A stretch of DNA of 64,000 nt from an uncultured Alphaproteobacteria bacterium (lineage in GTDB: Bacteria; Pseudomonadota; Alphaproteobacteria; RF32; CAG-239). Location: assembly GCA_910585375.1 (NCBI GenBank), contig CAJUCZ010000004.1:10636-74635 (forward strand), written 5' to 3'. The translations under genes were made by a program, and so were the position numbers. Under the pieces are notes generated by a model. The model made no database searches, was not told where the DNA came from, and saw only the letters and a list, made by a program, of their open reading frames with translations. Position 1 is the stretch's first letter, and the number at the start of each line of letters is the position of its first letter. Below, piece by piece: positions 1 through 48,114 of this stretch.

Positions 1-163
1 CATGTCAGTACATATGTTTTTCGAACTCTCCGGCCACCTTCTTCTGAGGTGGTTTTTTATTACCCCGGAGAAGACAATGTATACAATTATTTTTTCTCAC
101 ATCTTTTCTGTCCGGAAGTAAAAGCCGTCTCTATGCGTTTAACATATTGAACGGAGAAAAAAT

Positions 164-1042
164 ATGAATAAAGAAGAATTACACTTTTTTCTGGGGGGAA
201 AAGATTTGGAAATGGCAGCAATTAAAACTCTTTTGGAAAAAGAGAATGTAGCTTACAGTGATGCCGGGCTGGCATGGGGAGCTTCGACATCTAAATATGG
301 TGATGAAATCAGCAAAGTATCTTCAAAGGGCAAAACCCCGGTTCTGGTGGAGTTGCAGGTTGATTCACCCCTGCCTGAGAATATTATCAATATCGACCAC
401 CATAACGACAGAGCCGGAGAACCGGCATCTATTCTGCAAGTTTGCGAAACGCTTGGAATTCAACCTACACGCACAATGCAACTGATTGCAGCTAATGACA
501 GCGGATATATTCCGGCAATGAAAGCTATGGGCGCCACACCGGAAGAGGTTAGTCAAATTCGGCTGATGGATCGTCAGGCACAGGGAATTACTGCCGAGCA
601 GGAACAGGAAGCCGAACGCGCAATTGCTGAAAAAGAAGAAGTTTACGGTGTAACGGTGGTTCGAATGAAGCATTCCAAAACGGCAACGGTAACTGATCGT
701 TTGTTCGATGAAAATAAACCACAAAATTTGTTGATATTTTCAGAGGACGGCGAAGTTAACTATTTTGGTAACGGCCTTATTTGTAAAGAGCTGCAAGGCA
801 ACAAAACAGGAAAAGATGAAAACGGTTATGACACCTTTGACCATTTTGGTGGCTGGAATGGCGGTACAGGGCTTGGTAAAAGTGATGGCACGGCTTTTTG
901 GGGCGGATATCCCAACCATGCCGAAGTGCTGAAATTTGTTATCAACCGCAACCGTGAGCTTAACCAGAAAGAAAAAAGCGCGCCGCAGCAGGATATGATA
1001 ATGAAAAGTATTATTAAAGATTTCGGAAACCGCAGCCGTTAA
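164..1042 (+). CDS. hypothetical protein, 292 aa, C-terminus ...FGNRSR
   Basis: ATG at 164 with upstream GGAG; long ORF; no recognisable family (single IDHH tripeptide is insufficient to call DHH phosphoesterase); shares C-terminal G-x-R-S-R tail with the two following CDSs. Confidence 0.5.
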   Translation: MNKEELHFFLGGKDLEMAAIKTLLEKENVAYSDAGLAWGASTSKYGDEISKVSSKGKTPVLVELQVDSPLPENIINIDHHNDRAGEPASILQVCETLGIQPTRTMQLIAANDSGYIPAMKAMGATPEEVSQIRLMDRQAQGITAEQEQEAERAIAEKEEVYGVTVVRMKHSKTATVTDRLFDENKPQNLLIFSEDGEVNYFGNGLICKELQGNKTGKDENGYDTFDHFGGWNGGTGLGKSDGTAFWGGYPNHAEVLKFVINRNRELNQKEKSAPQQDMIMKSIIKDFGNRSR

Positions 1043-1138
1043 CAATATGGAGGAACCGGAGCTATCCGGTTCCTCACCGCTGCTGGGCGGTTTGATGCAC
1101 AGCAGCTGTAAACTGCCCCAATTTGCAGGAGAAGAATT

Positions 1139-3484
1139 ATGACTGATAATGAATTACTAACATGGCCGATATTTTCGGCAAACCAAGATGAAGTGGCAAA
1201 GGCTTTAAAAGAAAAAGGTTACACGGTAAAAAAGATTTGGAAAAAGGTAAGCGGTAGCGATTCTTTACAAGAACTGTATTTTGAAATATCTGTTGCGGAT
1301 GATGTTATCAGCAAAGAAGCCATTGATGCCGTTAATAAAGATATTTCAGAATGTTCCGAGCACGTGAAAAATTATAAGTTAAAACAAATTGACAATGAAT
1401 TTGAAAAAAACATCCTTGATAAGCAAGGTATTTTATCTTTTATAAAATATAATAAATATCAGAAACCTCAGCCACAAAAAAGATATTATCAAGATAAATA
1501 TGACTACTGGTTTTCTGTAACAAGTTTTGATGACGGCAAAATATTTCTTGCAGATAGAGAAAAGTTGGAAAAAAATAAAGACCAAGCCATAGAAATTGTA
1601 AGGCCTGATTTGTTAACTACAAATATTGAAAAAGAGTTGAAGGATAAAGCATATGAGGCAAAGTTAACTTTAAAATACAAAGAATATGACCATTTTACAT
1701 ATATTGTTAAAGGCCATGAACTGGAAAATGTCTTTTGGATGGATTTGGACTTATCCAATCCCGAAGATATGCAAAAAGCCTTAGCGCAGGATTCTTTGCG
1801 CTGGCCATCGTTCAGTGCTCTAGACAAAGAACTGGCCGCAAAGCTTGAAGAACACGGATATATCTGTAGAAAAGTCGGCCGAAGCGGTTTTGACAGCCGT
1901 AATCGTTTTAATGTCATGACCCAGGACGGCAAGCTGACTTCCGAAGTCTTAGAGCGGCTTAAACAGGAAGTCAATAATTGCCGAAAGATTTTAGCTGAGG
2001 AGAAAATTCGCGCTTTTGACCAATATTTTGATGAGCAGTCACCGGATAAAAATAAGGTTTATTCTGTGGTTGAGAATGGAAATGATTTTTATTTAACCCG
2101 CACCCAAGATTCTGAAAAATATGACACGATTGCCTCTGACATTGTTGCGTTCACGGCAGACCATCGTAGAAATGTAGGACATACTTATAAAGAGCTGCTT
2201 ATTCATAAAGAACGAATCAAAACTGATAAGCGCCATGTTATTACTTTTGAGGTTCCGCAAAAGATGATCGGGCGCATTATCGGCAAAGGAGGGGCAAATA
2301 TTAAAGCGCTGGGGCAGAAATATGGCAAGCATTTTAAGGTTATTCAAGATCCCGGAGAGATTTACAGAAACAATTTGACAGAGCTGCACGAGACCTTCTC
2401 AACTATGTTGAACAACGGAACCGCTTTGTCATTTGACCTTAGTTTATCCCAATATCCGTGGCTGAATGAAAAAGATAAAAAAGAACTGCAGGAAAAGTTT
2501 ACCTCAGCCGTCATTGAAAAAGACAAACAACGGGAGAAAGAAGCGCAGCTCAAACATGAACGCGATATTTATATTGTAACATCTAACGTTATGTCTTATT
2601 TAGGAGATATGACTTCTCTGCCGGAAAATGAGGTTGTCCTTAAACTTGCAGAGTTTTTGCGGAAGAATAAAGACAATACGGAGATTATTCCGGTTCAGCC
2701 CAATCGTGAAGAACTGGAAACAATCAAGCAGAAAGCATTTGAAACCAGAGAACGGGAGATAAAAAGGCAACAGGAGCTAAAAGAAGCCGAACATCGTTAT
2801 TTTATGGATGCTGTTCATAATCAAATGCTGCGGGTTTTAGAAGAAACAGGAAAAGTAATAGAAGCAGAAAAGCTGACCCAATTCATAAACACAAAATTTG
2901 AGGGTAAAGATCCGGTTCGGCTGCAAGAACTTAAAAAAGAAGCATTCGAGGAACGTGCTGAAAAAGAGCGGCAGTTTCCCCAAAAAGTAGAGAAACTGCG
3001 CGAGATTTATTATAACGTAATTGCCGCTGAAATTACCAATCGAAACGGAGAAATTATTCGTCACGCCTGCGAAAGCAATGGATCAGCCAGCAGAGTTTTC
3101 AACGCGTTGTATGATCAGGCCGAAGAAGCCGGATTGAAAGAAGAATTTTACTTTATCAATATTGCAGAAACTCCACAAGATGACAGTGAGGCCGAACTTT
3201 ACCGGCATAATGTCAAATTCATGGAACAATTTGTGGTTCAAGATATTGAGGAAAACGGCGGCTATTATGATTCGGATGTTTGCTTTTATATTTCGAAATC
3301 GCTGAAAAAGGAAACGGCAGCAGAGATACTTCCCATACAAAAACAAACAGAAGATGTTCCTTCGGAGCCGCAAATCAGCTTGAAAGAAGCCAAAGCTCAG
3401 GCCAAAGGCCAAAAGAGTAAAGGGAAAACCAATAATCTGGCCGATTTGGCGATGCTTCTTAACGGCGGAAAAGGCAGTCGTTAA
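1139..3484 (+). CDS. hypothetical large protein (781 aa) with eukaryote-like type I KH domain and coiled-coil/charged repeats; C-terminus ...GGKGSR
   Basis: RBS caGGAGaagaattATG; KH core VPQKMIGRIIGKGGANIKALGQKYG (GXXG loop) around aa 370-400; very Lys/Glu-rich; markedly lower GC (~33-35%) than flanking core genes. Confidence 0.6.
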   Translation: MTDNELLTWPIFSANQDEVAKALKEKGYTVKKIWKKVSGSDSLQELYFEISVADDVISKEAIDAVNKDISECSEHVKNYKLKQIDNEFEKNILDKQGILSFIKYNKYQKPQPQKRYYQDKYDYWFSVTSFDDGKIFLADREKLEKNKDQAIEIVRPDLLTTNIEKELKDKAYEAKLTLKYKEYDHFTYIVKGHELENVFWMDLDLSNPEDMQKALAQDSLRWPSFSALDKELAAKLEEHGYICRKVGRSGFDSRNRFNVMTQDGKLTSEVLERLKQEVNNCRKILAEEKIRAFDQYFDEQSPDKNKVYSVVENGNDFYLTRTQDSEKYDTIASDIVAFTADHRRNVGHTYKELLIHKERIKTDKRHVITFEVPQKMIGRIIGKGGANIKALGQKYGKHFKVIQDPGEIYRNNLTELHETFSTMLNNGTALSFDLSLSQYPWLNEKDKKELQEKFTSAVIEKDKQREKEAQLKHERDIYIVTSNVMSYLGDMTSLPENEVVLKLAEFLRKNKDNTEIIPVQPNREELETIKQKAFETREREIKRQQELKEAEHRYFMDAVHNQMLRVLEETGKVIEAEKLTQFINTKFEGKDPVRLQELKKEAFEERAEKERQFPQKVEKLREIYYNVIAAEITNRNGEIIRHACESNGSASRVFNALYDQAEEAGLKEEFYFINIAETPQDDSEAELYRHNVKFMEQFVVQDIEENGGYYDSDVCFYISKSLKKETAAEILPIQKQTEDVPSEPQISLKEAKAQAKGQKSKGKTNNLADLAMLLNGGKGSR

Positions 3485-3793
3485 AGTACGGAAAGAATAC
3501 TCGGTTTTATGCAGAATGCAAACCTGAATTTATAATAAAAAATTTTTGTTCTTGATCTCAAACAGATAACACAGAACAGAATGACACCGATTAAAGGAGT
3601 GAAAAATGGATTGATATAAAAATACGTTCTATTTTAGAAAAAGCTTTCAACGAAGACGGTTGTACTCTTTATAGTTGTTAACTTTTGCAAATATATATAG
3701 CGCCTCGTCTTCAAAAATGAGGTGTTCTTCTGCCTGCCAGAACCTTGTAATGAGCCGGCTTCCTCCGCTGCTTCAACTCCAATCTTAGCCAAT

Positions 3794-3826
3794 AAAAAAG
3801 CTGTTCTTTATGAACAGCTTTTTTTG
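3794..3826. terminator. bidirectional intrinsic terminator hairpin (AGCTGTTC-ttta-tGAACAGCT flanked by A6/T7)
   Basis: perfect 8-bp stem with flanking A-run and T-run, immediately downstream (on minus strand) of tRNA-Pro. Confidence 0.55.
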
Positions 3827-3881
3827 AAGCACTTTTTGTGTCTGCGATACCGGAATAAATTGACCGCTACCGCTGTGCGGT

Positions 3882-3958
3882 TGGTCGGGATGACTGGATT
3901 TGAACCAGCGGCCCCTTGCACCCCATGCAAATGCGCTACCAGGCTGCGCTACATCCCG
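3882..3958 (-). tRNA. tRNA-Pro (anticodon GGG)
   Basis: reverse complement folds as cloverleaf: acceptor CGGGATG/CATCCCG, D-stem GCGC/GCGC, anticodon stem TTTGC/GCAAG with loop AUGGGGU (anticodon GGG), T-arm GCTGG-TTCAAAT-CCAGT, discriminator A, CCA encoded. Confidence 0.85.
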
Positions 3959-4108
3959 AAATTTTATAAAATCTAAGAATATTCTATACGGCTTTGCCGG
4001 CAAAAAAGCAAGCATTATTTTTAATTATAAATGAAATATTGCACATATAAATAAAGAATGTTACACTAAACATAATTCAGAGCATAGTTTTACAAGGAAA
4101 ATCATATC

Positions 4109-4750
4109 ATGTCATTTTTTATGTCGGTAGGCCGCCATGAATCTTATGAACGCCATGGAGCCAAATATCCGATTACGCCATCGGGAATAGCAGATGCCTG
4201 GCTGAGTGGTCCGATTCTTGAGGAACAATCCGCACCGGTAGACGTGATATACACGTCGCCTCTGCCTCGGGCGAAAGCCACGGCTGTCGCGCGCGGCATG
4301 TCAATAGGATGTTTGAATATTATAATCAGTGAAGCTCTGCACGAAAACGCTGTACCGTTGGATGTGCTGAAATTTCAAAAACAAACGCTTTCAGAAGCGG
4401 AGGCTGCCGGCATTAAACATATTCACCTTGTAACCCATCAGCCGGTTGTTTCAATTCTGGGCGGTTCTTATTCCGTGCCGCCGGGAAGCATTTATCTTTA
4501 TAAGGGAGAAAGCTGGCAGGATATTATGCAGCGCAGGGCAGAGATTATGTCGTTGCCTTCTGTGGAAAGGTTGCTGTATGTTCTGCAGTTTGAGAAGCCT
4601 GAAGCTTTTGACCGTATGTCTGTACGCTATGCCGGATTAACGGCTTTGGCGCAAGAGCATGGAGGTTCTTTTGAAAGCCTTTTGTCGGCTTATGCTGCTT
4701 CAAACCCGAAAATGATAGCGGCACAAAGGTTTTCCGGTCGATCCCGCTAA
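4109..4750 (+). CDS. histidine phosphatase superfamily protein (phosphoglycerate mutase/SixA-like); C-terminus ...FSGRSR
   Basis: N-terminal RHxxxxxRHG catalytic motif (VGRHESYERHG) and SPLPRAKATA motif typical of branch-1 histidine phosphatases; ATG with weak AAGGA RBS. Confidence 0.55.
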   Translation: MSFFMSVGRHESYERHGAKYPITPSGIADAWLSGPILEEQSAPVDVIYTSPLPRAKATAVARGMSIGCLNIIISEALHENAVPLDVLKFQKQTLSEAEAAGIKHIHLVTHQPVVSILGGSYSVPPGSIYLYKGESWQDIMQRRAEIMSLPSVERLLYVLQFEKPEAFDRMSVRYAGLTALAQEHGGSFESLLSAYAASNPKMIAAQRFSGRSR

Positions 4751-4865
4751 TTTTTATTGACCGTTTTGCCATAAATTTATCTACATGATTTGTATTTTAT
4801 TTGACATCAGGCTCTAAAGTTATAAATTAACCTCACAAGTTAAATTATTTATAATCTTATTATAT

Positions 4866-5390
4866 ATGAATATACAAATAGAGTTGAAGGACGTAGTCGG
4901 CTTGCCGGAATTGTTATCAGAAGATGATAGTGGCAATGCTTATAAGAAAAGGGTTTTTTCCATCATTATTCGTGAACAGACTCTGTCTCTTGGCGAAAAT
5001 CATGTAAATAATGCCCTTAACATCGGCAACAGCTTTAATCCGATATTGGGAAACTGCCGTTTGAATAAAGAGCCGCTGATAAATTGGAAACATCTGATAA
5101 AATCTTTAATCTGCTGTGACTATCATAATCCGGTGATTAAAAAGAAGATTCAGAAAGTGCTTGGTCAAATGGAAGAGGTGGAAAGACTTAAGATACTGTT
5201 ATCCGGTCTCGGATATTTTACCTTTCGGGACTGGCGCCGCCGCACGGCATTACTGCGCAAAAAACGAAAAATATTGCGGCAGAAAGTAGATTTTAACGTT
5301 TTTGTTGCTATGGCCATTATGGTTTATGAACAGAAGAAACTGGGAACGGGAGTAGAGTTTTTACAGGAATTGTGCGTCTGTTATGCTTAA
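4866..5390 (+). CDS. hypothetical protein (174 aa)
   Basis: ORF only, AT-rich surroundings, no recognisable motifs. Confidence 0.3.
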   Translation: MNIQIELKDVVGLPELLSEDDSGNAYKKRVFSIIIREQTLSLGENHVNNALNIGNSFNPILGNCRLNKEPLINWKHLIKSLICCDYHNPVIKKKIQKVLGQMEEVERLKILLSGLGYFTFRDWRRRTALLRKKRKILRQKVDFNVFVAMAIMVYEQKKLGTGVEFLQELCVCYA

Positions 5391-5395
5391 AACAA

Positions 5396-5425
5396 AAACC
5401 CTGACAGAAAGGTCAGGGTTTTTGT
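5396..5425. terminator. bidirectional intrinsic terminator (CCCTGAC-agaaag-GTCAGGG + T5) between convergent genes
   Basis: 7-bp perfect stem, A-run upstream and T-run downstream. Confidence 0.6.
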
Positions 5426-5734
5426 TTAGTCATTAATCGCTTTTTGAATATTCTTACGCAGTGAAACCAAATTGTCATCTGCACAATGCTTTGCTACATA
5501 ATGCCCTTCGGGCGTTGCGGCTTCACGAAAATACTCAATGATAAACAATCTTGCGGAATACGTCAGCCCCAAAGAATTGTGTTTTCCGCTTTCTATCAGG
5601 CTCAATAAGTCATTTTTTGTAATTTTTTCAATATCACAAACTTCTTCCAAGGCTTCCCATTCTTTATGACACAAACGGATGCTTGTTCTTCTGTCGTTGA
5701 TCATTACAACTTTATTAATAAGTTTAGTCATCAT
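5426..5734 (-). CDS. ribbon-helix-helix (RHH_4-like) domain protein
   Basis: motif RRTSIRLCHKEWEALEEVCD...LSLIE...NSLGLTYSARLFIIEYF matches the alphaproteobacterial RHH family often misannotated as aryl-sulfate sulfotransferase. Confidence 0.5.
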   Translation of the reverse strand: MMTKLINKVVMINDRRTSIRLCHKEWEALEEVCDIEKITKNDLLSLIESGKHNSLGLTYSARLFIIEYFREAATPEGHYVAKHCADDNLVSLRKNIQKAIND

Positions 5735-6103
5735 CTCTTTCGTACCATCATCGTTTTTATTATAATACTTTCACAATACACAAATAAAAAGGAAAATACA
5801 ATTTAAAAAAGAAAAATATGGATAATAAAAAGCTTGGTTGCGCAAAATATAGTTGCTATCTTTAATCATATCTCTAATTCGTTGAATTTCAAAATTTTAT
5901 TTAAACAAATCTCAACTTTAAAACATATAAAGACACATATATAGTACTTATGCTTTTATAAAATTGCAATCATAAAATAGTATGTTTTTAAAAATTCAGA
6001 CATTCATACTGGTTTTTCAAGCAAAACAGGCATTGAAAATTTGGGGCAATTAATAATTTTTAAAAAGAAAACAGCCTGCAAAGAAACAGGCTGTTTATGA
6101 TTG

Positions 6104-13201: not shown

Positions 13202-13990
13202 ATGAGAACATTAAATATCGGCGCAACCGGAATGCTGGCACAACAAACCAATGTTGATGTCATTGCCAACAACCTCGCCAATATGAACACCACCGCCTAT
13301 ACCAAACGGCGGGCGGAATTTACCGACCTTTTGTATCAAAACGTGATTCGTCCGGGGTCAGCTTCCACTGCCTCGCAGACAATCGTCCCGTCCGGCATCC
13401 AGCTTGGTCTGGGTGTCAGAACCGCGGCGGTTTACCGCATTACCGACGGCGACGGCCTGACCAATACCGGCAACGAACTGGATTTGGCCATTCGCGGCCG
13501 CGGCTATTTTCAGATTGAACTTCCGGACGGACAGGGCACGGCTTATACCCGTGACGGCGCTTTTCAGCGTAACGGCGACGGTGTTATTGTCACGCATGAC
13601 GGCTATACCGTTCAGCCGGAAATCACCATTCCGGAAGACGCTGTTGAAGTCTATGTTAATAACTCCGGCGAAGTCTGGGTCAAACAAGACGGCGAAACTG
13701 ATGAAGTAAACGTCGGACAGCTGGAACTGGCGACTTTTCCGAACGAGGCCGGCTTGGAAGCCATGGGCAACAACCTGTTTACCGAAACCGAAGCCTCCGG
13801 CGCACCGATTATTGACAACCCCGATACCGAGGGCTTTGGCTCTATCCTGCAAGGATATTTGTCAACGTCCAACGTCAATCCGGTGGCCGAAATTACCGAG
13901 CTGATTTCTGCCCAGCGCGCTTATGAGATGAACTCAAAAGTCATCTCGACGGCTGACCAGATGCTGAGTACCATTAATCAGCTGAAATAA
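13202..13990 (+). CDS. flgG: flagellar basal-body rod protein FlgG
   Basis: MLAQQTNVDVIANNLANMNTTAY… and C-terminal rod domain; 262 aa typical of FlgG. Confidence 0.9.
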   Translation: MRTLNIGATGMLAQQTNVDVIANNLANMNTTAYTKRRAEFTDLLYQNVIRPGSASTASQTIVPSGIQLGLGVRTAAVYRITDGDGLTNTGNELDLAIRGRGYFQIELPDGQGTAYTRDGAFQRNGDGVIVTHDGYTVQPEITIPEDAVEVYVNNSGEVWVKQDGETDEVNVGQLELATFPNEAGLEAMGNNLFTETEASGAPIIDNPDTEGFGSILQGYLSTSNVNPVAEITELISAQRAYEMNSKVISTADQMLSTINQLK

Positions 13991-14002
13991 GGGGTAGGCA
14001 AG

Positions 14003-14713
14003 ATGAAAAATTTGCTGCTGGTTTTAACGTTTGTTCTGACGGTTGCTAATCCGTTTCCGGCTTTCGGACAGACTTATGTCTCGGAAGAGGACATTGCCTC
14101 CGCGCTGAAAAAAGAATATCTCGAGCGCTTTGGCGAGGGCGATGAAATTGAGCTGGAATTTTACGGCGGCCGGACAAATTTTAGTCTGGAAGAGGCCGGA
14201 GAAGTTAAAATCATGGTGGCAAATGCCCGTTTTGACGAGCTGCAAAATAAGTTTTCCGCGGATGTGGAAGTTTTTGCCGGCGGCAAACCGGCGGCAAAAT
14301 CCGCTTATCAGGGAAAATATTACATTTTGACCGAAGTATTTGTGCCGGCGCAAAACATCAACAAGGGCGAAGTCATTACGGCCGACAAGCTGAAAAGCAT
14401 TAAAGTCCGCGCCAATCGTGTCAAACCGCAGCATCTGGCCGACAAGGACAAACTGATAAATATGGAAGCCAAAAGAAACCTGCGCGAAGGCAAAATGATA
14501 AGCGATAAAGACGTGGGCAAAATTGTTCTGATAAAAAAAGGCAGTATTGTAAATTTGATTTATCAGACCCCGTATATGCAGATAACCGCCAAGGCCGAGG
14601 CTTTGGAAGACGGCTGCCGCGGCGACCGGATTGAAATCCGCAATACCAAAAGCAAAAAAGATTTATACGGCGAGGTTGTTGACGCCGAAACGGTTCGGAT
14701 TGAGCAGCAGTAA
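14003..14713 (+). CDS. flgA: flagellar P-ring formation protein FlgA (SAF domain)
   Basis: signal peptide, C-terminal SAF-like domain, position between flgG and flgH. Confidence 0.6.
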   Translation: MKNLLLVLTFVLTVANPFPAFGQTYVSEEDIASALKKEYLERFGEGDEIELEFYGGRTNFSLEEAGEVKIMVANARFDELQNKFSADVEVFAGGKPAAKSAYQGKYYILTEVFVPAQNINKGEVITADKLKSIKVRANRVKPQHLADKDKLINMEAKRNLREGKMISDKDVGKIVLIKKGSIVNLIYQTPYMQITAKAEALEDGCRGDRIEIRNTKSKKDLYGEVVDAETVRIEQQ

Positions 14714-15747: not shown

Positions 15748-16413
15748 ATGAGAAAAAATATAAATGAAGTGAAACATGCGGAAAATGAAGCCGAGATTTT
15801 TTTGAGACACGCTCTGGCGATTTCAAATGCTTTTGGCAGCAACGATGAAATTGCAATCCTGACCGCATTGGATAATAACTTAAAATTGTGGGTAGAGATA
15901 GAAACTTCTCTCAAAGACGTAAAGAATTTGCTTCCTGAAGATATCAAAGAAAACTTGCTCAAGTTGTCAAAATTCATTGAGCGCCTTACCTTATCAAAAG
16001 GTCTTCATATGACTGCGCCGGATTATAACTGCCTTATTAACATCAATATGCAGATTTCCGAGGGCTTGCTGGAAGCCGTCAGAAACCATCTGGCCAAGGA
16101 AGAGGCTTTCTCTTTGTTAAAATGCGCGCTGGACATTTCTACAGCCCGCGATAATGAAGACAAAAACGGTCTGGTGGCAGCGCTTGACAATAATATGAAA
16201 CTTTGGGTTTATATTAAAACGCTGGCCAATTCCGAAGAAAATAATATGCCGAAAGAAACCAAGAACAATCTGATAAAACTGGCAGATTACGTTTCGGCCA
16301 AAACTTTGGAAGTCGGACAGGATATTGATAACCTGAACCAAAAGGCCATCGACAGCATGATTATGACCAATCTGCAAATTTCCGAAGGTCTGATGAACAA
16401 AAAAAGCGCTTAA
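15748..16413 (+). CDS. FlaF-like flagellar regulator, tandemly duplicated (two FlaF domains)
   Basis: two ~100-aa repeats each with LDNNxKLWV…INMQISEGL, matching FlaF motif (…N+xLW…IDIN+…EGL) also seen in 26044-26412. Confidence 0.55.
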   Translation: MRKNINEVKHAENEAEIFLRHALAISNAFGSNDEIAILTALDNNLKLWVEIETSLKDVKNLLPEDIKENLLKLSKFIERLTLSKGLHMTAPDYNCLININMQISEGLLEAVRNHLAKEEAFSLLKCALDISTARDNEDKNGLVAALDNNMKLWVYIKTLANSEENNMPKETKNNLIKLADYVSAKTLEVGQDIDNLNQKAIDSMIMTNLQISEGLMNKKSA

Positions 16414-26043: not shown

Positions 26044-26412
26044 ATGAATGAATCCGATCAATATTCCAACAATGAAATGCAGTCATTGTCACAGTCGGAG
26101 TTAGAAAGCAGAGCCCTCATTAATACGGCGTCCAAACTGAATTATATCAGAGAACATTGGGAAGAGGGAAAAGCCGGGTTGGATGAAGCTCTGGATAAAA
26201 ACCGCAAATTATGGGCGATTATTGCTTCAGCCATGCAGGAGGCAGATTGTCCGCAGCCGGCTGACGTCCGCCAGAATATTTTGAATCTGTCTGTCTTTAT
26301 ATTTAAGCGTACAATTGATATTTTGACAGACCCCAAACCGGAAAGCCTGCGCGTGCTGATTGATATTAATATGAATCTGGCAAAAGGCCTGAACCATAAA
26401 GGCATTGATTAA
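26044..26412 (+). CDS. flaF: flagellar biosynthesis regulator FlaF
   Basis: LDKNRKLWAIIASAM…LIDINMNLAKGL matches Caulobacter FlaF pattern (HKNRQLW…IDINRAIMEGL). Confidence 0.6.
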   Translation: MNESDQYSNNEMQSLSQSELESRALINTASKLNYIREHWEEGKAGLDEALDKNRKLWAIIASAMQEADCPQPADVRQNILNLSVFIFKRTIDILTDPKPESLRVLIDINMNLAKGLNHKGID

Positions 26413-33753: not shown

Positions 33754-33830
33754 GGGGGCGTAGTTCAGCTGGTTAGAATACATGCCTGTCACGCATGGGG
33801 TCGCGAGTTCGAGCCTCGTCGCTCCCGCCA
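33754..33830 (+). tRNA. tRNA-Asp (anticodon GUC)
   Basis: cloverleaf: acceptor GGGGGCG/CGCTCCC, D-arm TAGTTCAGCTGGTTAGAATA, anticodon stem CATGC/GCATG loop CUGUCAC, T-arm GCGAG-TTCGAGC-CTCGT, discriminator G, CCA encoded. Confidence 0.9.
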
Positions 33831-33841
33831 TTATAAAAAAA

Positions 33842-33911
33842 AGCTGCCTTTATGGCGGCTTTTTTTATAATATCAGGGTAGCAGAGGCTCGAACTCGGAA
33901 GAGCCCGCTAA
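33842..33911 (+). repeat. 70-bp direct repeat copy A (terminator hairpin AGCTGCC-ttta-TGGCGGCT + T7, plus tRNA T-arm-like fragment)
   Basis: 69/70 identical to 34179-34248; contains RC of a tRNA-Asp-like T-arm (CCGAGTTCGAGCCTCTG). Confidence 0.7.
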
Positions 33912-33941
33912 GGAAATTTTACCGAGCTCCGGTAAAATTTC
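33912..33941. repeat. near-perfect palindrome GGAAATTTTACCG-agctc-CGGTAAAATTTC (12-bp arms)
   Basis: seen directly; lies between the two 70-bp direct repeats. Confidence 0.7.
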
Positions 33942-34178
33942 TCTGCAAGAGCAATGACATCTTAGTGAAAGAGGGCGTGTGAGCAACCGAATTGAACTTA
34001 GATGCCATTGGACGAAGCTGCGAAGCAGCGTGCCTCGTTGCTCCCAAAAAACATCCTGATTAAAGCTTGTGAGCGAGAGGGCAAAGCGAAACAAGCGTTA
34101 CATAGCGGTGCCCGCAGCGAGTTAGCGTTGCGAATGAAGGTAATGCTTACAAGCCGGAAAAGCCTCATCACAAATTTG

Positions 34179-34248
34179 AGCTGCCTTTATGGCGGCTTTT
34201 TTTATAATGTCAGGGTAGCAGAGGCTCGAACTCGGAAGAGCCCGCTAA
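34179..34248 (+). repeat. 70-bp direct repeat copy B
   Basis: see copy A; spacing 337 bp. Confidence 0.7.
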
Positions 34249-34319
34249 AAGTCGTCATAATTTCTTGAACATCCGTTGTGAATATCATATAATTTGATTT
34301 AAGAATAAGGAAAAAATCA

Positions 34320-35201
34320 ATGCATGACATCTGGAATCCGTGGCACGGTTGTGTTAAAAAAAGCGAGGGCTGCCAAAATTGTTATATGTACTTTCTGGAT
34401 AAACAGCGCAATCAGGACGGCCGCCGGATTTATAAAGTAAAAAACAATTTTGATTATCCGCTGCAAAAAGATAAAAACGGCCGCTATAAAATCAAAAGCG
34501 GTGAGCAGATTCGCGTCTGCATGACATCGGATTTCTTTTTGGAAGAAGCTGATGAGTGGCGTTCGGAAGCATGGAAAATCATGAAAAAAAGGCCGGATGT
34601 CGTCTTTTTTCTGCTGACAAAACGACCGGAACGGGTGGCAGAATGCCTGCCGCCGGATTGGCATGACGGCTGGGAAAATATTTTCTTTAACGTGACTTGC
34701 GAGAATCAGAAACGTGCCGATGAACGGATTCCGCTGCTGTTTAAACTGCCGTTCAAGCATAAAGGCATTATGGTTGCGCCGTTTGTCGGGCCGGTCAGTA
34801 TTAAAAGTTACCTTCCTGCCGGACAAATAGAGCAGGTGATAGCAGGCGGCGAGAACTATGACGGCTCCCGCCCTCTGGCGTATGACTGGGTTAAAAGTCT
34901 TTATGATGAATGTGTCGGGGCAGATGTAACCTTTTGCTTTATTGAAACCGGAACTAATTTTATGAAGGACGGCAAAACATATCATATGCCGGACAAAAGG
35001 CTGCAAAGCCGTATGGCATACAAATCCGGCCTGCAATATCAAGGAAAAGCACAGAAATTTCTGCTCGACAATATAGGACAGGGCTCATTGTTCGGAGAAG
35101 AAGTCTGGCAAAAGTCTTTCTGTTCTCGTTGTCAAACCTGCGGCAGCCGGCTGATTTGTAACGGCTGTTCCGATTGCGGCCAATGCAAAAAACGAAATTG
35201 A
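34320..35201 (+). CDS. phage Gp37/Gp68-like protein (DUF5131 family)
   Basis: N-terminal WNPWHGCVKKSEGCQNCY signature of PF07505; C-terminal Cys cluster; fully overlapped by antisense ORF 34317-35042 which I regard as spurious. Confidence 0.6.
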   Translation: MHDIWNPWHGCVKKSEGCQNCYMYFLDKQRNQDGRRIYKVKNNFDYPLQKDKNGRYKIKSGEQIRVCMTSDFFLEEADEWRSEAWKIMKKRPDVVFFLLTKRPERVAECLPPDWHDGWENIFFNVTCENQKRADERIPLLFKLPFKHKGIMVAPFVGPVSIKSYLPAGQIEQVIAGGENYDGSRPLAYDWVKSLYDECVGADVTFCFIETGTNFMKDGKTYHMPDKRLQSRMAYKSGLQYQGKAQKFLLDNIGQGSLFGEEVWQKSFCSRCQTCGSRLICNGCSDCGQCKKRN

Positions 35202-36341: not shown

Positions 36342-37925
36342 ATGAAAAAATATTATTTTAAAATAAGTTCGACAGGTTTTATCTTGCTTTCGGCTCTGGT
36401 TTCCGTTACTTTCAACTATACTTTTTTGGGCAAAATATATGCCGCTGCCGGAGTACTTTTTTGTCTGTTGACCGGAATCATCTTGTTTTGTATATTTTGC
36501 GGTGCTTATTCCTTGTTGTTTATAAAAAAAGCCGAAAAATGGCTGGCGGCATTTTTTATCATCGGCAACGGTGCCGCTTTATATTTTATGCAAACCTATA
36601 ATGTTGCTGTCGATAAAGTGATGATGCTCAATGTGTTTCAGACAGATGCTGCGGAGGTCAGCGGACTGCTGAGCACGGAGATGATTCTTTTTGCCGTATC
36701 CTTTTGTGGGTTGCCGTTGTTTTTACTATACAAAACCCGAATAGAATATTCGGACTTTAAGCGTGAAGTAAAAATCAGGCTGACTGTAATTGCTGCTTCC
36801 TTTATCTTGTCAGGGCTGATTATTTTGCCTTTTTCCGCCCGTCTTGATACTTTTGTACAAGAGCATAAAAGGCTTCTTTATACGTTAATGCCGAGTAATT
36901 ATATCGATTCGACCATGTCAGCGCTTAAAATCATACATAAACATCATGACTTCAAACCATTGGATAAAAAAGCGGAATTAAACAATTACTGGAAAGATAA
37001 CGGCCGTAAAAACCTGTTTATAGTGATTGTCGGGGAGAGTGCCCGTGCCGCAAATTTTTCGTTGAATGGCTATGAGCGCGATACCAATAAGGCTCTGAGG
37101 CCGTTTGCCGATGAGATGATGATCTTCAAAAAAGCCAAAGCCTGCGGCACGTCAACGGCCATCTCCGTACCTTGCCTGTTTTCGCCTTATGAAAGAATAA
37201 ACTTTGTTGCCGGTTCATCTTCCTATACCGAAAATGTTTTGGATGTGCTGGCTTATAACGGTTATCAACTTTTATGGCGGGAAAATAATTCCAGTTGTAA
37301 AGGCAACTGCAACCGTATTCCCACGGAGGTCTTCTGTCAAAACGGCAAGTGTTATGATGAGCTGATGAACGCCGGTATTGCCGAAAAGGCGCGGACAATG
37401 GGGGACAAAGCCGTGATTGTCCTGCACCAGCACGGCAGCCATGGTCCGGATTATTTCCTGCGCTATCCGGAAGAATATGAAATTTATAAACCGGTCTGCA
37501 AAGACGAGGTTCTGAAAAACTGCACGCTCGGGCAGATTCGCAACACCTATGACAACAGCATTGTATATACCAGCCATGTGGTGGCCGATTTGCTGAAAAA
37601 ACTGCAACCTCTGGAAGATGAATATAACCTTGCCGTTATATATACGTCGGATCACGGCGAATCTTTGGGAGAAGACGATATGTATCTTCATTCGGCCGTG
37701 TATGATTATGCGCCTGATTATCAGACCGAAGTGCCTTTTTGGGTATGGATGCCGGATTCAGCTGTCAAAAACATGAACTACAGCCGTTCCTGTCTGCGCC
37801 GTCAAAGTCAAAAGCAAATATCGCATGATAATATGTTTCATTCCCTGCTGGGGTTGGCCGGCGTGGAAATTGAACATTACCGTCCGGAGCTGGATATTTT
37901 TGCGCCTTGCCGGCAATCAAGATGA
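36342..37925 (+). CDS. phosphoethanolamine transferase (EptA/OpgE, sulfatase-domain)
   Basis: 5 N-terminal TM helices; sulfatase-domain motifs IVIVGESARAANF…HGSHGPDY…YTSDHGESLGE. Confidence 0.8.
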   Translation: MKKYYFKISSTGFILLSALVSVTFNYTFLGKIYAAAGVLFCLLTGIILFCIFCGAYSLLFIKKAEKWLAAFFIIGNGAALYFMQTYNVAVDKVMMLNVFQTDAAEVSGLLSTEMILFAVSFCGLPLFLLYKTRIEYSDFKREVKIRLTVIAASFILSGLIILPFSARLDTFVQEHKRLLYTLMPSNYIDSTMSALKIIHKHHDFKPLDKKAELNNYWKDNGRKNLFIVIVGESARAANFSLNGYERDTNKALRPFADEMMIFKKAKACGTSTAISVPCLFSPYERINFVAGSSSYTENVLDVLAYNGYQLLWRENNSSCKGNCNRIPTEVFCQNGKCYDELMNAGIAEKARTMGDKAVIVLHQHGSHGPDYFLRYPEEYEIYKPVCKDEVLKNCTLGQIRNTYDNSIVYTSHVVADLLKKLQPLEDEYNLAVIYTSDHGESLGEDDMYLHSAVYDYAPDYQTEVPFWVWMPDSAVKNMNYSRSCLRRQSQKQISHDNMFHSLLGLAGVEIEHYRPELDIFAPCRQSR

Positions 37926-44128: not shown

Positions 44129-45505
44129 TTATAAATTCTTTTCATAATCATCAATTCTTGCTAACAAATCATTAAGTTTAAGCCGAAGTTTTTTGTTTCC
44201 GGCGGCTTGCCTCAGAGCATTTTCGGCCTGCCGTCTGGCGGCTTTAAATTCTCCGATGCCGAGACTGAATTCGGCAGCTGTATATTCTGCATATTCCCTT
44301 TGCCCCAAACCTTCATAAGCGCGGGAAAGCAGCATATAAATCAGACTCCCCGGCCTTTGTACGGCAGCCTGATTCAGTTGATTGACAATTTTTTGCAATT
44401 TGCTTTTGTCCGGAGAAGTTTCCAAAGCCGCCTGCGCCCAGTTGACCTTGAACAGAGCCGAGTTGGGCATAAGGGATAATGCTTTTTCATATTCCGCCTC
44501 GGCCTGTCTGACCTTGCCGTTTTCAATGTAAATCTGGCCTTTTAACTCATGAAAATACGGATTGTCCGGCTCTCTGGCAATCAGTTCGTCAGCGTTGCGC
44601 AAAGCCTGTTGAAGTTTCATTTGCTTAAAATAGGCGATCGTACGGGCGTACAATGCCGGAGTGGACGAATCCGACGCCGGATATTTACGGAGTGTCTGAG
44701 TTGGAGTTTCCAAAAAGCCGGTAAGCTTGGCTTTAATCCTGTCAAACTTGTCGTCTTTGACGGATAAAGCCGAAACGCCCGATTCTTTGACGGCTTGTTC
44801 CAAGAATGAAATTCTTTCCTTTGTCATCGGGTGCGTTCGGAAATAGGGCATTTCTTCTCGTCCGCTCATAATATTGCGCTGCTCGATTTTTTTCATAAAA
44901 TCAAGCATTCCGGCCGGAGATTTGTGATTGGCCTTTAACAATTTGACGGCAGCCTCGTCCGCACTTCTTTCTTCGCTGGTCCGGTAATTCAAAAACTGGT
45001 TGAGCGTCGCCCCCTGACTGCCGACCGCCATTGCCATGGCTACATCGCCGCGTCCGCCCAAAACTGCGGCGGCACCGGCAAGAACAGCCGAGGCCAGCCC
45101 GATTTTTTGTAAAGACTGGGCTTGAATTTTTCCGCGCAAAATATGTCCGCCTTCAATATGTCCGATTTCGTGGGCTATAACGCCTTCAAGCTCGTTGCGG
45201 CTGTCAGCGGCGGTAATGGTTCCTGTATGCACAAAAAGATTGTTGCCGTCGCCGACAAAAGCATTCAGGCTGTTATCCTGCACGATATAAAGCTTGTTGC
45301 GGTTAAAAGGAATTCCGGCGGATTTGAAAAACGGTCTGGCCGTATCGGCAAGAAACTGCTCGGTTTCTTCGTCAGAAATAATGATAATCGCCTGAGCGTT
45401 CCTGCATTCAAAAGCCAAAAAGGCCAACAGCAGAAAAATTCCGCTGTTAAGCCTTTTCAGCCAGTGTCTGAAAGAAGTTAACCTTTTATCAGTTTTTTCC
45501 ACCAA
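44129..45505 (-). CDS. M48 family periplasmic metalloprotease with TPR repeats (BepA-like)
   Basis: signal peptide; HEIGHIEGGH zinc motif; C-terminal TPR-like region. Confidence 0.8.
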   Translation of the reverse strand: MVEKTDKRLTSFRHWLKRLNSGIFLLLAFLAFECRNAQAIIIISDEETEQFLADTARPFFKSAGIPFNRNKLYIVQDNSLNAFVGDGNNLFVHTGTITAADSRNELEGVIAHEIGHIEGGHILRGKIQAQSLQKIGLASAVLAGAAAVLGGRGDVAMAMAVGSQGATLNQFLNYRTSEERSADEAAVKLLKANHKSPAGMLDFMKKIEQRNIMSGREEMPYFRTHPMTKERISFLEQAVKESGVSALSVKDDKFDRIKAKLTGFLETPTQTLRKYPASDSSTPALYARTIAYFKQMKLQQALRNADELIAREPDNPYFHELKGQIYIENGKVRQAEAEYEKALSLMPNSALFKVNWAQAALETSPDKSKLQKIVNQLNQAAVQRPGSLIYMLLSRAYEGLGQREYAEYTAAEFSLGIGEFKAARRQAENALRQAAGNKKLRLKLNDLLARIDDYEKNL

Positions 45506-48081
45506 GTTGTTTTTTCCTTTGTATCTTCCGTGCCGGCGGCATCAGAATTGGCCGTTGCCTTGTTCTCTGACAAAGATGTAGTATTGCCGCGGCTGTTATA
45601 CAAGATGATGGCTTCTTGTTTTTCTTTAACGACCGGAGCCGGTCTGCTGCCGGAATCTCTCGGTGAACGGTCTTTTCTGTCCCGATTGCCCCTGTCGCGC
45701 CGTCCTCTGCGGTTGCGGTCACGGCGGTCTCTCCGGTTGCCGGTATTTTCTCTGTCGCTTTCTTCAGCTTGAACAATTTCTTCGGCCGTCGTATCAGAAC
45801 TTTCATTGATGTTAGAAAGCTCTTCCTGCTTTTCTTCCGTTTTTTCGCGTCGGGAATTCCTTTTTCCTTCGCGGCGTTCGTTACGGCTGTCATCACGCTT
45901 TTCTTCACGTTTTTCTTTTTCAGCCGTTTTTTTGTCTTCCTCTTCGGATTTTGTGCTCTTAACCCGCTCAATCCGGTAGTCGGAAACGTTTTTAATGCTG
46001 TTGTCAGCGCTGATGATAATGCTCATGCCGTAACGCTTTTCCAAATCAATCAGTTTTTCGCGTTTGTGATTTAGCAGATAAACGGCAATATCGCCGGGCA
46101 CAAACACATTGACCGAAGTCGAACGGTTGCGGATGCCTTCTTCTTCAATTCCGCGCAAAATCAGAACCGCTGCGGAATCCGTTGTCCTGACAAGGCCTTT
46201 TCCTCCGCAGTAAGGGCAGGTCGTATAATTGCTTTCAAAGAAAGAAGAGTGCATTCTCTGGCGCGAAAGCTCCAGCAGCCCGAAGCAGCTCATCTTGCCG
46301 ACCTGAACACGGGAGCGGTCTTTTTTCAAAGCCTCTTTCATCCGGCGTTCAACGGCATGGTTGTTTGCCGGTTCATCCATATCAATAAAGTCAATCACAA
46401 CCAACCCGGCCAGATTGCGCATTCTGAGCTGGCGGGCAATTTCATCGCATGCTTCAAGATTGGTCTTGAGAGCGGTTTCTTCCAAATCTTTTTCTTTGGT
46501 TGCACGGCCGGAGTTGACGTCAATTGAAACCAGAGCCTCTGTCGGGTTAATGACCAGATAGCCGCCGGATTCCAGTTGCGCATTGGCGTCATGCAGCTTG
46601 TCAAGCTGGGTCTCAACCTGAAAACGCTGGAACAGCGGCATTTCATTATTGCGATAATTTTTGATTTTTTTCAGGCTGTGCGGGGAAAGGATTCTGAAAA
46701 AGTCCTTGGCCATTTTATAGGCATTCTCGCCTGAAACCAAAATCTCCGAAACTTCTTTGGTATAAATATCGCGCAATGCCCGCTTAATCAGATTTCCTTC
46801 CTCATGAATCATGGCTGGAGCCTTGCTGCTCAAAGATGCGATTCGGATCTGATTCCAGCTTCTGATAAGATAATTGTAATCACGCACAATATCTGCTTTT
46901 GTCTTTTCTTCACCGGCAGTGCGGACGATAATGGACATATCGCTGGTCAGCGGCAGTTCTTTGACAATATTTTTAAGTCTCTTGCGGTCAGCCACATTGG
47001 TAATTTTACGGGAAACTCCGCCGCTTTTGATCCTGTTTGGCATCAAAACGCAGTATCTTCCGGCCAGAGACAGGTACGTTGTTAAAGCGGCGCCTTTGTT
47101 TCCGCGTTCTTCTTTAACAATCTGAACCATTAAAATCTGGCCTTCTTTAATCACTTCCTGAATACTGTGGCGGTGGTAAAGCTTGCGGGACTTCAAAAGT
47201 TTTTTCTGCAGGTCAAAATCATATTCCTGCTCTTCATCGTCATCTTCGTCAAAAGCCTCGCTGCCGCAAACTTCGTCATCTTCTTCGTCATCGGCCGCGG
47301 AAGAGGGCGAAACTGCCTCGGTGATACTGTCTTCTTCTGTACCGCTGTCTTCGCTCAAAACTTTCAGTTCTTCGTTGGCTTCACGTTTCTTGCTGCGGCG
47401 CGGCCTTCTGCGATAACGTGATTTCCGGCCTTTTTCTTCCTCCTGATTTTCCTCATCGGGTTCCGAAGCTTCGGCAGTTGTTTCGGAAACTTCTTCTGCT
47501 GTTTCGGTAACATCACCTGCGGCTTCAGTTGCTTGTTCTTCAGCTTCGGCCGGAGTATCTTGCGCCGTCGTTTCTTCATTTGTCGCTTCGCCGGCATTTC
47601 CTGCTTGCATAGCACTGTCGCTGTTATCCGATTCGTCCGGGGCTGATGCTTTTGTCTCAGGTTGTTCCGCCTGCGTTGCCGCTTCCTGTTCGGCTTTCAG
47701 TCTTTCGGCTTCCAGCCGGGCCTGTTGTTTTTCGGCGCGGATTCTTTCTCTTTCGAGTTCGCGTTCTTTGATTGCGGCCTTTTTGTTCTCAATAATCTCG
47801 TCAACTTCTTTGTCAACCTCGGCCAGCTCTTCTTCCGATACATTATAATAGTCGGGATGAATTTCGCCAAAAGCCAAAAATCCATGCTTGTTGCCGCCGT
47901 AATCCACGAATGCGGCCTGCAGGGAGGGCTCGACCCTCATGACTTTGGCAAGATAAATGTTTCCTTTAATCTGGCGGCGATAAGCAGTTTCGCATTCAAC
48001 ATCTTCCAGCTTGTTTCCGTTAATAACCACAACCCGTGTTTCTTCCGGATTAGTGTCGTCAATCAACATTCTTTTAATCAT
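45478..48081 (-). CDS. rne: ribonuclease E
   Basis: N-terminal S1/RNase E catalytic domain (MIKRMLIDDTNPEETRVVVI…), acidic/Arg-rich C-terminal scaffold; start chosen at ATG 48081 (MIKRMLIDD). Confidence 0.9.
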   Translation of the reverse strand: MIKRMLIDDTNPEETRVVVINGNKLEDVECETAYRRQIKGNIYLAKVMRVEPSLQAAFVDYGGNKHGFLAFGEIHPDYYNVSEEELAEVDKEVDEIIENKKAAIKERELERERIRAEKQQARLEAERLKAEQEAATQAEQPETKASAPDESDNSDSAMQAGNAGEATNEETTAQDTPAEAEEQATEAAGDVTETAEEVSETTAEASEPDEENQEEEKGRKSRYRRRPRRSKKREANEELKVLSEDSGTEEDSITEAVSPSSAADDEEDDEVCGSEAFDEDDDEEQEYDFDLQKKLLKSRKLYHRHSIQEVIKEGQILMVQIVKEERGNKGAALTTYLSLAGRYCVLMPNRIKSGGVSRKITNVADRKRLKNIVKELPLTSDMSIIVRTAGEEKTKADIVRDYNYLIRSWNQIRIASLSSKAPAMIHEEGNLIKRALRDIYTKEVSEILVSGENAYKMAKDFFRILSPHSLKKIKNYRNNEMPLFQRFQVETQLDKLHDANAQLESGGYLVINPTEALVSIDVNSGRATKEKDLEETALKTNLEACDEIARQLRMRNLAGLVVIDFIDMDEPANNHAVERRMKEALKKDRSRVQVGKMSCFGLLELSRQRMHSSFFESNYTTCPYCGGKGLVRTTDSAAVLILRGIEEEGIRNRSTSVNVFVPGDIAVYLLNHKREKLIDLEKRYGMSIIISADNSIKNVSDYRIERVKSTKSEEEDKKTAEKEKREEKRDDSRNERREGKRNSRREKTEEKQEELSNINESSDTTAEEIVQAEESDRENTGNRRDRRDRNRRGRRDRGNRDRKDRSPRDSGSRPAPVVKEKQEAIILYNSRGNTTSLSENKATANSDAAGTEDTKEKTTWWKKLIKG

Positions 48082-48114
48082 AAATAATAACTCCATTGCT
48101 TGGCTGTAATGCAA

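Follow-up and report, generated by a model that had tools for sequence, protein, structure and literature searches.

Layout of the locus

We analysed a 64-kb stretch of DNA from an uncultured alphaproteobacterium (the window in what follows), with a focus on three genes near its beginning and on the short C-terminal tails of the proteins that they encode. The gene search also took in the 10 kb upstream (74 kb in total), and relatives were read as single loci. The original prediction had described the three genes, which flank a tRNA, as one acquired block of low GC content that encodes unrelated candidate effectors with a common signal for secretion. The three open reading frames (ORFs) and the tRNA-Pro(GGG) do lie where it had placed them, according to the ORF list and ARAGORN. 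The block is not one unit, however, but a movable two-gene module and an unrelated resident phosphatase.

164-1042, + strand: gene 1, 292 aa, NrN-family DHH/DHHA1 phosphodiesterase, ending ...IIKDFGNRSR
1139-3484, + strand: gene 2, 781 aa, KH-domain partner protein, ending ...AMLLNGGKGSR
3882-3958, - strand: tRNA-Pro(GGG), between genes 2 and 3 (ARAGORN; Rfam tRNA, 59 bits)
4109-4750, + strand: gene 3, 213 aa, SixA-like histidine phosphatase, ending ...AAQRFSGRSR

Gene 1 encodes a predicted NrN-family phosphodiesterase

Comparisons of sequence and of predicted structure show gene 1 to be a member of the NrN-family DHH/DHHA1 phosphodiesterases, with its putative catalytic residues intact. When a profile of 25 gene 1 homologues was compared with the PDB, the NrN chains 9LQ9, 9LQA/B and 9LQC were matched at E 3e-50, and the single sequence matched NrN chains at E 2e-31. 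The AlphaFold (AF2) model of gene 1 has a pLDDT of 90.8, and Foldseek aligned it with the NrN-SAM-AMP / NrN-SAH-AMP structures (9lqa/9lqb/9lqc) at a TM of 0.84-0.86 and E of ~1e-21 to 1e-22. Two PADLOC models also matched, namely C3a116 (2.5e-68) and DHH_CorA, described as 'DHH family hydrolase, CorA associated' (7.5e-57). All 25 homologues have D78-H79-H80, E16 and D112 unchanged, and these positions can be aligned with those of the NrN chain; E16 and D112 are the equivalents of E21 and D119, which were mutated in the deposited NrN structures.

To our knowledge, NrN is known solely as an accessory enzyme of CorA-type type III CRISPR systems. The enzyme of Bacteroides fragilis breaks down the type III CRISPR messenger SAM-AMP and works alongside the membrane effector CorA (PMC10600005), and corA-nrn fusions occur in some species, which implies site-specific action (PMC10600005, PMC11346440). 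Gene 1 shares with the B. fragilis protein (PDB 9LQ9-9LQC) the fold and the family, 31% identity, the DHH triad and the E21/D119 equivalents. It differs in having no cas, cas10 or corA nearby and in being paired or fused with a KH-domain protein. Moreover, it carries a C-terminal linker and helix of ~25 residues (its tail), which both the 260-aa B. fragilis NrN and most homologues lack. Its neighbours are a porin, the KH protein and the tRNA, and no cas, cas10, CRISPR or corA genes were found in the window and the 10 kb upstream. The NrN family, which comprises at least 449 clusters at 90% identity, is widespread; it is found mostly in metagenome-assembled genomes (MAGs) of uncultured gut and rumen Alphaproteobacteria, and also in Patescibacteria, and it stands there outside CRISPR loci.

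Several features of the NrN loci of relatives are worth recording. Serine recombinase (Resolvase) genes are present in loci L009, L011, L022 and L038, directly adjoining NrN in three of these; two NrN copies are found in L008 and four in L035, and a C-terminal fragment in each of L012 and L038. The recombinases, together with the truncated and multiple copies, suggest mobility or recombination of the family. In most of the loci L017, L019, L021-L024, L029, L030 and L033, a tail-less NrN gene is directly followed by one for a small Zn-ribbon protein (...CPKCGATRP.GGG.W), which is a second conserved NrN partner family (nine loci). Finally, a nucleotidyltransferase (Adenyl_transf/Pol-beta-like, with weak PADLOC cyclase matches) is encoded at L010 11880-12881, two genes downstream of a tailed NrN, and is a possible source of a nucleotide signal.

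Genes 1 and 2 form a functional pair

The product of gene 2 begins its conserved part with a core plus KH domain of type I (aa ~205-405); long helices (aa 444-632) come next and, beyond a basic linker, a tail. Alignment revealed two copies of a W-P-x-F-S-A...G-R-S-G-F-x-S-R-N domain. The KH domain that had been noticed from the letters alone was recovered by Pfam:

2240..2353, + strand: KH domain with GxxG loop, IGRIIGKGGANIKAL; Pfam KH_1, aa 368-405, E 1.9e-7

Its G382-K-G-G385 loop is invariant among homologues, and the secondary structure in the AF2 model (E367-372, H374-381, H383-395, E398-403) has the beta-alpha-alpha-beta core of such domains. In the same model, aa ~200-470 are well folded, as ferredoxin-like units plus the KH domain, and are followed by the long helices and a disordered basic linker. 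A fold search of the KH protein against the PDB gave KH/NusA and weak PII-like ferredoxin matches alone, all of them at E >0.03. A profile search of 1.84 billion representatives returned 37 clear members of the family, the short forms of which consist of the core and the KH domain alone and end at the KH domain.

A homologue of the KH protein adjoins NrN in loci L008, L011, L015, L016, L034 and L053, and lies near it in L029 and L033, which makes at least eight independent MAG loci with the two genes together. Two proteins, P0006 and P0150, are outright fusions, in which a complete NrN domain (40% identity, E 3e-57) is followed by the KH-protein core (33%, E 3e-17); neither has a tail. Linkage and fusion thus show that genes 1 and 2 are a functional pair. 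The original prediction had called all three proteins unrelated, which holds for their sequences, but not for the function of these two. Gene 2 would be a dedicated partner of the NrN-family enzyme, with a KH domain for the binding of RNA or a nucleotide.

Two further proteins deserve mention. P0213 seems, by eye, to join the KH-family core with another putative DHH-like segment. P0215, a 153-aa protein from the search of representatives, combines the first ~35 residues of NrN with the last ~115 residues of the KH partner, tail included, and is probably a deletion spanning both genes of the pair.

An Rfam-type RNA scan upstream of the pair detected no riboswitch or known RNA, the tRNA being the only hit. 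The spacer of 96 nt between the two genes contains one structural feature:

1050..1075, unstranded: GC-rich stem-loop of 11 bp in the NrN/KH spacer, GAGGAACCGGATAGCTCCGGTTCCTC (minus-strand spelling)

The pair occupies a variable slot at tRNA-Pro(GGG)

1..3881, unstranded: variable (presence/absence) segment carrying NrN-KH, from ~540 bp upstream of the window to precisely the 3' end of tRNA-Pro(GGG)

In a related species (L048 and L049), whose flanks are 88-90% identical, neither an NrN nor a KH gene is present, and the order is porin - tRNA-Pro(GGG) - phosphatase - 174-aa gene - RHH_4 - HSP20. When these two loci were compared by blastn with L001, homology broke after the porin at L001 position 9296 and resumed at 13718, which is window position 3881. 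The absence of the pair from L048/L049, with an alignment that picks up again exactly at the tRNA's 3' end, thus marks the site of NrN-KH as variable. In L053, a second sister species, this slot holds the pair. The 3' end of the tRNA points towards the NrN-KH segment. In L002, of the same species, an extra 672 bp lies between the KH gene and tRNA-Pro (13322-14390); this is further evidence that the 3' side of the tRNA is an insertion hot spot. The 672-bp insertion holds a 95-aa ORF that matches EF-Tu domain 2.

The NrN-KH segment holds no integrase, and no att-like repeat of the 3' part of the tRNA was found. A plasmid origin was rejected, as megablast of positions 1-6000 against PLSDB gave no match. 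Neither was a phage origin supported: the window proteins had no PHROG matches, and 2.9 M viral contigs yielded one weak NrN locus. A capsid-packaging signal was set aside for this reason.

Against a mean of 44.6 +/- 3.9% GC for the genes of the window, gene 1 (44.4%, z -0.06) and gene 3 (48.8%, z +1.06) are normal, and gene 2 is modestly low (38.5%, z -1.55; z -2.2 for GC at third codon positions). The original prediction, which had put gene 2 at 33-35%, thus overstated the difference, and the three genes are no low-GC block.

Gene 3 is a lineage-native backbone gene

Gene 3 matches His_Phos_1 at E 1.5e-7 and TIGR00249 sixA at 8e-7, the latter with 29 bits and thus below the cut-off of 74.5 bits. 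R9, H10 and H110 are invariant among homologues. It had been described as a histidine phosphatase with an RHG motif; the family assignment stands, while the catalytic motif is R9-H10-E. With SixA (branch 1 of the histidine phosphatase superfamily) it has in common the N-terminal R-H motif, SPLxRAxxT and the second catalytic His (THQP). It differs from SixA in the score below the NCBIfam cut-off, in RHE instead of RHG and in a helical C-terminal extension of ~70 aa, which ends in the basic tail.

The synteny tRNA-Pro - phosphatase - RHH_4 - HSP20 is kept in L048, L049 and L050, of which L048 and L049 only have the 174-aa gene after the phosphatase. L051, a locus outside the tRNA scan, keeps phosphatase - RHH_4 - HSP20. 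In the window the corresponding genes are as follows:

4866..5734, unstranded: neighbouring backbone genes, one for a 174-aa protein of unknown function (+), the other for an RHH_4 protein (-)

These two genes converge on a perfect 16-bp hairpin at 5390-5427. The phosphatase ends in ...QRFSGRSR also in the related species that lacks the NrN-KH pair, and in more distant relatives with the same synteny it ends in ...AFRTASR or ...PYRSRCR. Gene 3 is a lineage-native backbone gene on the other side of the tRNA from the pair. Since it lies across the tRNA and keeps its tail where the pair is missing, there is no three-gene islet; the idea of a tRNA-linked acquisition fits genes 1 and 2, which are present or absent at the tRNA, and fails for this conserved neighbour.

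The three C-terminal tails

983..1039, + strand: NrN tail, with polar linker aa 267-273 and helix aa 274-290, QQDMIMKSIIKDFGNRSR
3434..3481, + strand: KH-protein tail, NNLADLAMLLNGGKGSR
4706..4747, + strand: phosphatase tail, ...NPKMIAAQRFSGRSR

Most NrN homologues end in ...FVIDFFA at ~264 aa and are without a tail. In a subset, a polar linker follows and then the motif D-x-x-M-x-K-[FIL]-L-x-[DE]-[FLM]-x(2-4)-[KR], which includes conserved acidic residues (Asp); the AF2 model of gene 1 has here a helix at 274-290 with pLDDT ~76-81. Tailed and tail-less NrN paralogues stand side by side in one MAG (L035), and in L008 an unrelated 255-aa protein encoded between two NrN genes ends in the NrN tail motif, NIAKFLADFANKK. 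To judge from such sequences, the tails are modular add-ons. In the KH family a different motif, [GN]-L-x-[GAS]-L-A-[AM]-L-[LWK]-G-[GA]...[KR], is conserved in the long alphaproteobacterial homologues, where it comes after an AKKAAK-rich linker (examples are GGLSGLAALLAQREK, ENLAALWGAKKGKLK and GLDSLAALKAKFGGNSGK); in the tail of gene 2 itself, a short helix (aa 768-774) is a low-confidence prediction of AF2. The phosphatase tail is conserved only as [FY]-x-x-x-[SC]-R, with an invariant terminal R: RFSGRSR in three homologues of 69-83% identity, then AFRTASR and PYRSRCR.

The NrN and KH tails are two different family-specific motifs, not one signal. The three tails have generic features in common: each has a short stretch of hydrophobic or amphipathic character, then a Gly/Asn/Ser turn, and a basic residue at the very end. 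The original prediction had given the shared ending as G-x-R-S-R, but gene 2 ends in G-K-G-S-R. Furthermore, the RSR spelling is specific to the species: in the sister species L053 (88% identity), NrN ends in ...LGKNGR and the KH protein in ...NRGESR.

That such endings in neighbouring genes are unlikely to arise by chance, as had been proposed, was borne out by counting. The window and the 10 kb upstream have 63 ORFs that encode 100 aa or more; four of these end in SR, against ~0.25 expected from composition. Besides genes 1-3, the fourth is that for lipid A phosphoethanolamine transferase (EptA, 36342-37925), which ends in QSR. Three consecutive SR ends have a P of ~4e-6, or ~5e-5 if the empirical rate of 0.9% (528 ORFs of related loci) is used, which is 2-3 times the compositional expectation. 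The terminal residue also depends on the lineage. Lys is the usual last residue of NrN and KH tails in other genera, while members of all three families in this genus have [S/G/C]-Arg at the end. K and R are the commonest last residues among the C-termini of the window (17/53), with K preferred 12:5. GC content or K/R usage was considered as a cause of the terminal R here and of K elsewhere, and was rejected, as composition is similar in both groups. The lineage-specific terminal Arg argues for a coordinated constraint.

The physical properties of the tails are less distinctive. Over their last 16 residues, the products of genes 1, 2 and 3 carry a net charge of +2, +1 and +4, and homologues one of 0 to +3. 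The hydrophobic moment (muH) is 0.63 for the NrN tail, 0.33 for the KH tail and 0.34 for the phosphatase tail, with a median of 0.45 for C-termini of the window. Moment and charge were therefore discarded as a discriminator of membrane binding, the tails being within the background of the window's own C-termini. A generic regular expression for 'helix plus basic end' was likewise too unspecific (p 0.057 near NrN) to define a proteome-wide class of tails.

A number of known C-terminal motifs did not match the tails: the beta-clamp binding motif (QLxLF), the SSB tail, the FtsZ C-terminal peptide, encapsulin cargo-loading peptides (LxIGSLK), microcompartment encapsulation peptides, and the C-terminal signals of type I and type VII secretion. 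Sortase, PEP-CTERM and GlyGly-CTERM sorting signals were dismissed too, as the tails have no transmembrane segment and there is no signal peptide.

The tails may be intracellular docking motifs

The explanation that we tentatively prefer, though with less than even confidence, is that the tails are short linear docking motifs acting inside the cell. Each would consist of a flexible polar or basic linker, a hydrophobic or amphipathic helix of 8-12 residues, a Gly/Asn/Ser turn and a terminal Lys/Arg. Such motifs would tether the enzymes to one or more intracellular partners, or to a hub, and thereby co-localise nucleotide- and RNA-processing activities; in this genus, the terminal residues of all three tails have converged on [S/G]-Arg. 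All three proteins are of cytoplasmic type, and the position-specific conservation in the tails, that of Asp included, exceeds what generic lipid binding needs.

There is an alphaproteobacterial precedent for this, as a C-terminal GWW peptide of RNase E recruits PNPase (PMC3376730). The RNase E of the window (45478-48114, - strand) ends in ...KTTWWKKLIKG (EDTKEKTTWWKKLIKG) after a long disordered region rich in Arg and Glu, and this end is, by analogy, at the position of the GWW PNPase-recognition peptide of Alphaproteobacteria. A 303-aa protein encoded just downstream of NrN in L010 (10951-11862) ends in ...KTTWFSKLIDKMKGKEN / ...DNKTTWFSKLIDKMKGKEN, which looks like a mimic of a GWW-type peptide. 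What the tails have in common with the GWW peptide is that a conserved short peptide stands at the extreme C-terminus after a linker, the linker of GWW being long, disordered and charged. They differ from it in that none of the three has a WW motif; only the NrN-adjacent protein of L010 resembles the end of RNase E.

Several observations weigh against docking. No tail-binding partner was identified in this analysis, and the core motifs differ among the three tails, for which a single shared receptor is not required. A loose definition of the tail is weakly enriched beside NrN genes (5/94 vs 8/447, p 0.057). The AF2 model shows no intramolecular docking of the KH tail, a region of low confidence. 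The phosphatase tail of distant homologues contains prolines, and given these it may not be helical. Lastly, part of the -SR coincidence may be chance on top of a general preference for a small residue followed by K/R.

Alternative explanations of the tails

A plausible but less likely alternative is that the tails are membrane-targeting sequences of the MinD/FtsA kind, in which an amphipathic helix would insert on the inner-leaflet side of the cytoplasmic membrane and keep the enzymes there. The architecture fits, with a linker, a helix (aa 274-290 in the AF2 model, muH 0.63 in NrN), an F-G-G-like cap and a basic end. The tails resemble MinD anchors, that of Bacillus subtilis being among them. 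In Escherichia coli the anchor reads KGFLKRLFGG (PMC5471200), and the part that MinD's amphipathic C-terminal helix plays has been described (PMC13537761). In other organisms, NrN acts together with the membrane protein CorA or forms a fusion with it (PMC10600005). Moreover, a YhdP/AsmA-like lipid-transport protein of the window (PF13116; 54933-58175, + strand) ends in ...SLFGGSNGK (SSLKDMLSSLFGGSNGK), which is close to the ...AKFGGNSGK of KH-family tails in other species (SLAALKAKFGGNSGK).

In their position and length, in the linker before them, in the aromatic-Gly cap and in the basic end, the tails are like MinD/FtsA helices. The tails differ from these helices in their lower charge (net 0 to +4), in the conserved acidic residues, which in NrN lie within the helix itself, and in an unexceptional hydrophobic moment, which for the KH (0.33) and phosphatase (0.34) tails is not above the window median of 0.45. 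Prolines occur in homologues of the phosphatase tail, and neither family-specific motifs nor a coordinated change from K to R are needed for lipid binding.

It is unlikely that the three endings are functionally unrelated and that the shared -SR is a mere coincidence, brought about by a general bias towards small and basic residues at bacterial C-termini. In its favour, the core motifs differ among the three families, the exact RSR is lost already at 88% identity, and gene 3 is evolutionarily independent of the pair; K or R is the last residue in 17/53 C-termini of the window, SR ends reach 0.9% in related loci and are there 2-3 times as frequent as composition predicts, and the ordinary membrane enzyme EptA ends in QSR as well. 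However, even at the empirical rate the P of three consecutive SR ends is ~5e-5, the terminal basic residue is under purifying conservation in all three families, and R was used three times despite the local preference for K.

Even less probable is the function that had been proposed originally, i.e. that the tails are C-terminal signals for type IV or other one-step secretion and deliver the proteins into another cell, where NrN, once injected, could work against defence. Substrates of the VirB/D4 type IV secretion system (T4SS) use Arg-containing, positively charged C-termini (PMC10025392), and the tails are similar in that they are C-terminal and have Arg at the end, with a terminal R-x-R in 2/3 proteins. 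In addition, a protein receptor is suggested by the lineage-specific convergence on a terminal Arg. The NrN-KH pair is an accessory one at a tRNA hot spot, and serine recombinases adjoin NrN genes in several MAGs. Nevertheless, the tails have two Arg only, a low net charge and conserved acidic residues, with no BID- or XVIPCD-like domain, and the 74 kb inspected contain no T4SS, coupling protein, relaxase or other specialised secretion genes; the proposal of an effector signal has thus gained no support. Tail-bearing proteins are not scattered through the window, and the NrN and KH tails are two family-specific motifs. Gene 3 is a native, SixA-like enzyme of the housekeeping type, the fused NrN-KH proteins are tail-less, and the characterised NrN degrades an intracellular second messenger (PMC10600005). 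Finally, the hosts are MAGs of flagellated bacteria of the gut lumen, and the search for plasmid and PHROG matches was negative, with one weak locus in viral contigs.

Known bacterial C-degrons (ssrA-like LAA and other non-polar ends) are hydrophobic, not basic, at the very end, and the locus has no linked gene for a protease or adaptor. It is just as improbable that the tails are degrons, in which a shared protease or adaptor reads the hydrophobic patch and the terminal Arg and keeps the enzymes at low, regulated levels, even though they are exposed, flexible and C-terminal after linkers, their lineage-specific last residues are in keeping with co-evolution with a protein that recognises them, and the activity of NrN has to be tightly controlled where it serves CRISPR (PMC10600005).

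Other features of the window and of related loci

Further variation was seen close to the slot. A 433-aa gene without a Pfam match lies between UDG and the porin (L001 6894-8195) and is absent in the sister species L048. At the porin position of L049 (7255-8529, - strand), the called gene is of 424 aa with no Pfam match on record and is followed by a 240-aa ORF; the DNA at this position aligns to the porin region of L001. Elsewhere in the window (33754-35201), tRNA-Asp(GTC) and an 88-aa ORF are followed by DUF5131 (phage Gp37/Gp68-type) and GNAT genes of lower GC, a stretch that may be another small islet. Two FlaF paralogues (15748-16413 and 26044-26412) flank a flagellar rod and efflux region.

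Significance of an NrN-KH module outside CRISPR

What is new here is a stand-alone NrN-KH module outside CRISPR, in which NrN is repeatedly paired or fused with one family of KH-domain proteins. The identical C-terminal residues of neighbouring genes are real, yet they are no marker of a single islet or of a demonstrable secretion signal.

A broader proposal is one that we regard as speculative and rather improbable. The stand-alone NrN-KH pair would be mobile and would serve to clear a nucleotide second messenger, SAM-AMP-like or other, either as an anti-defence measure or for turnover of a signal, and its two proteins, as well as the native SixA-like phosphatase, would be sorted by a lineage-specific C-terminal [S/G]-Arg peptide via a dedicated receptor. 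This receptor would be a secretion coupling protein, a compartment shell or an undescribed hub in gut Alphaproteobacteria.

The modular C-terminal peptides offer a tractable handle on such questions, as a tag of 15-20 residues for locating where, and to what, the proteins go. Should the target of the pair be a nucleotide signal or the ends of RNA, this would mean either that SAM-AMP-like signalling extends beyond CRISPR, or that mobile elements carry a counter-defence module.

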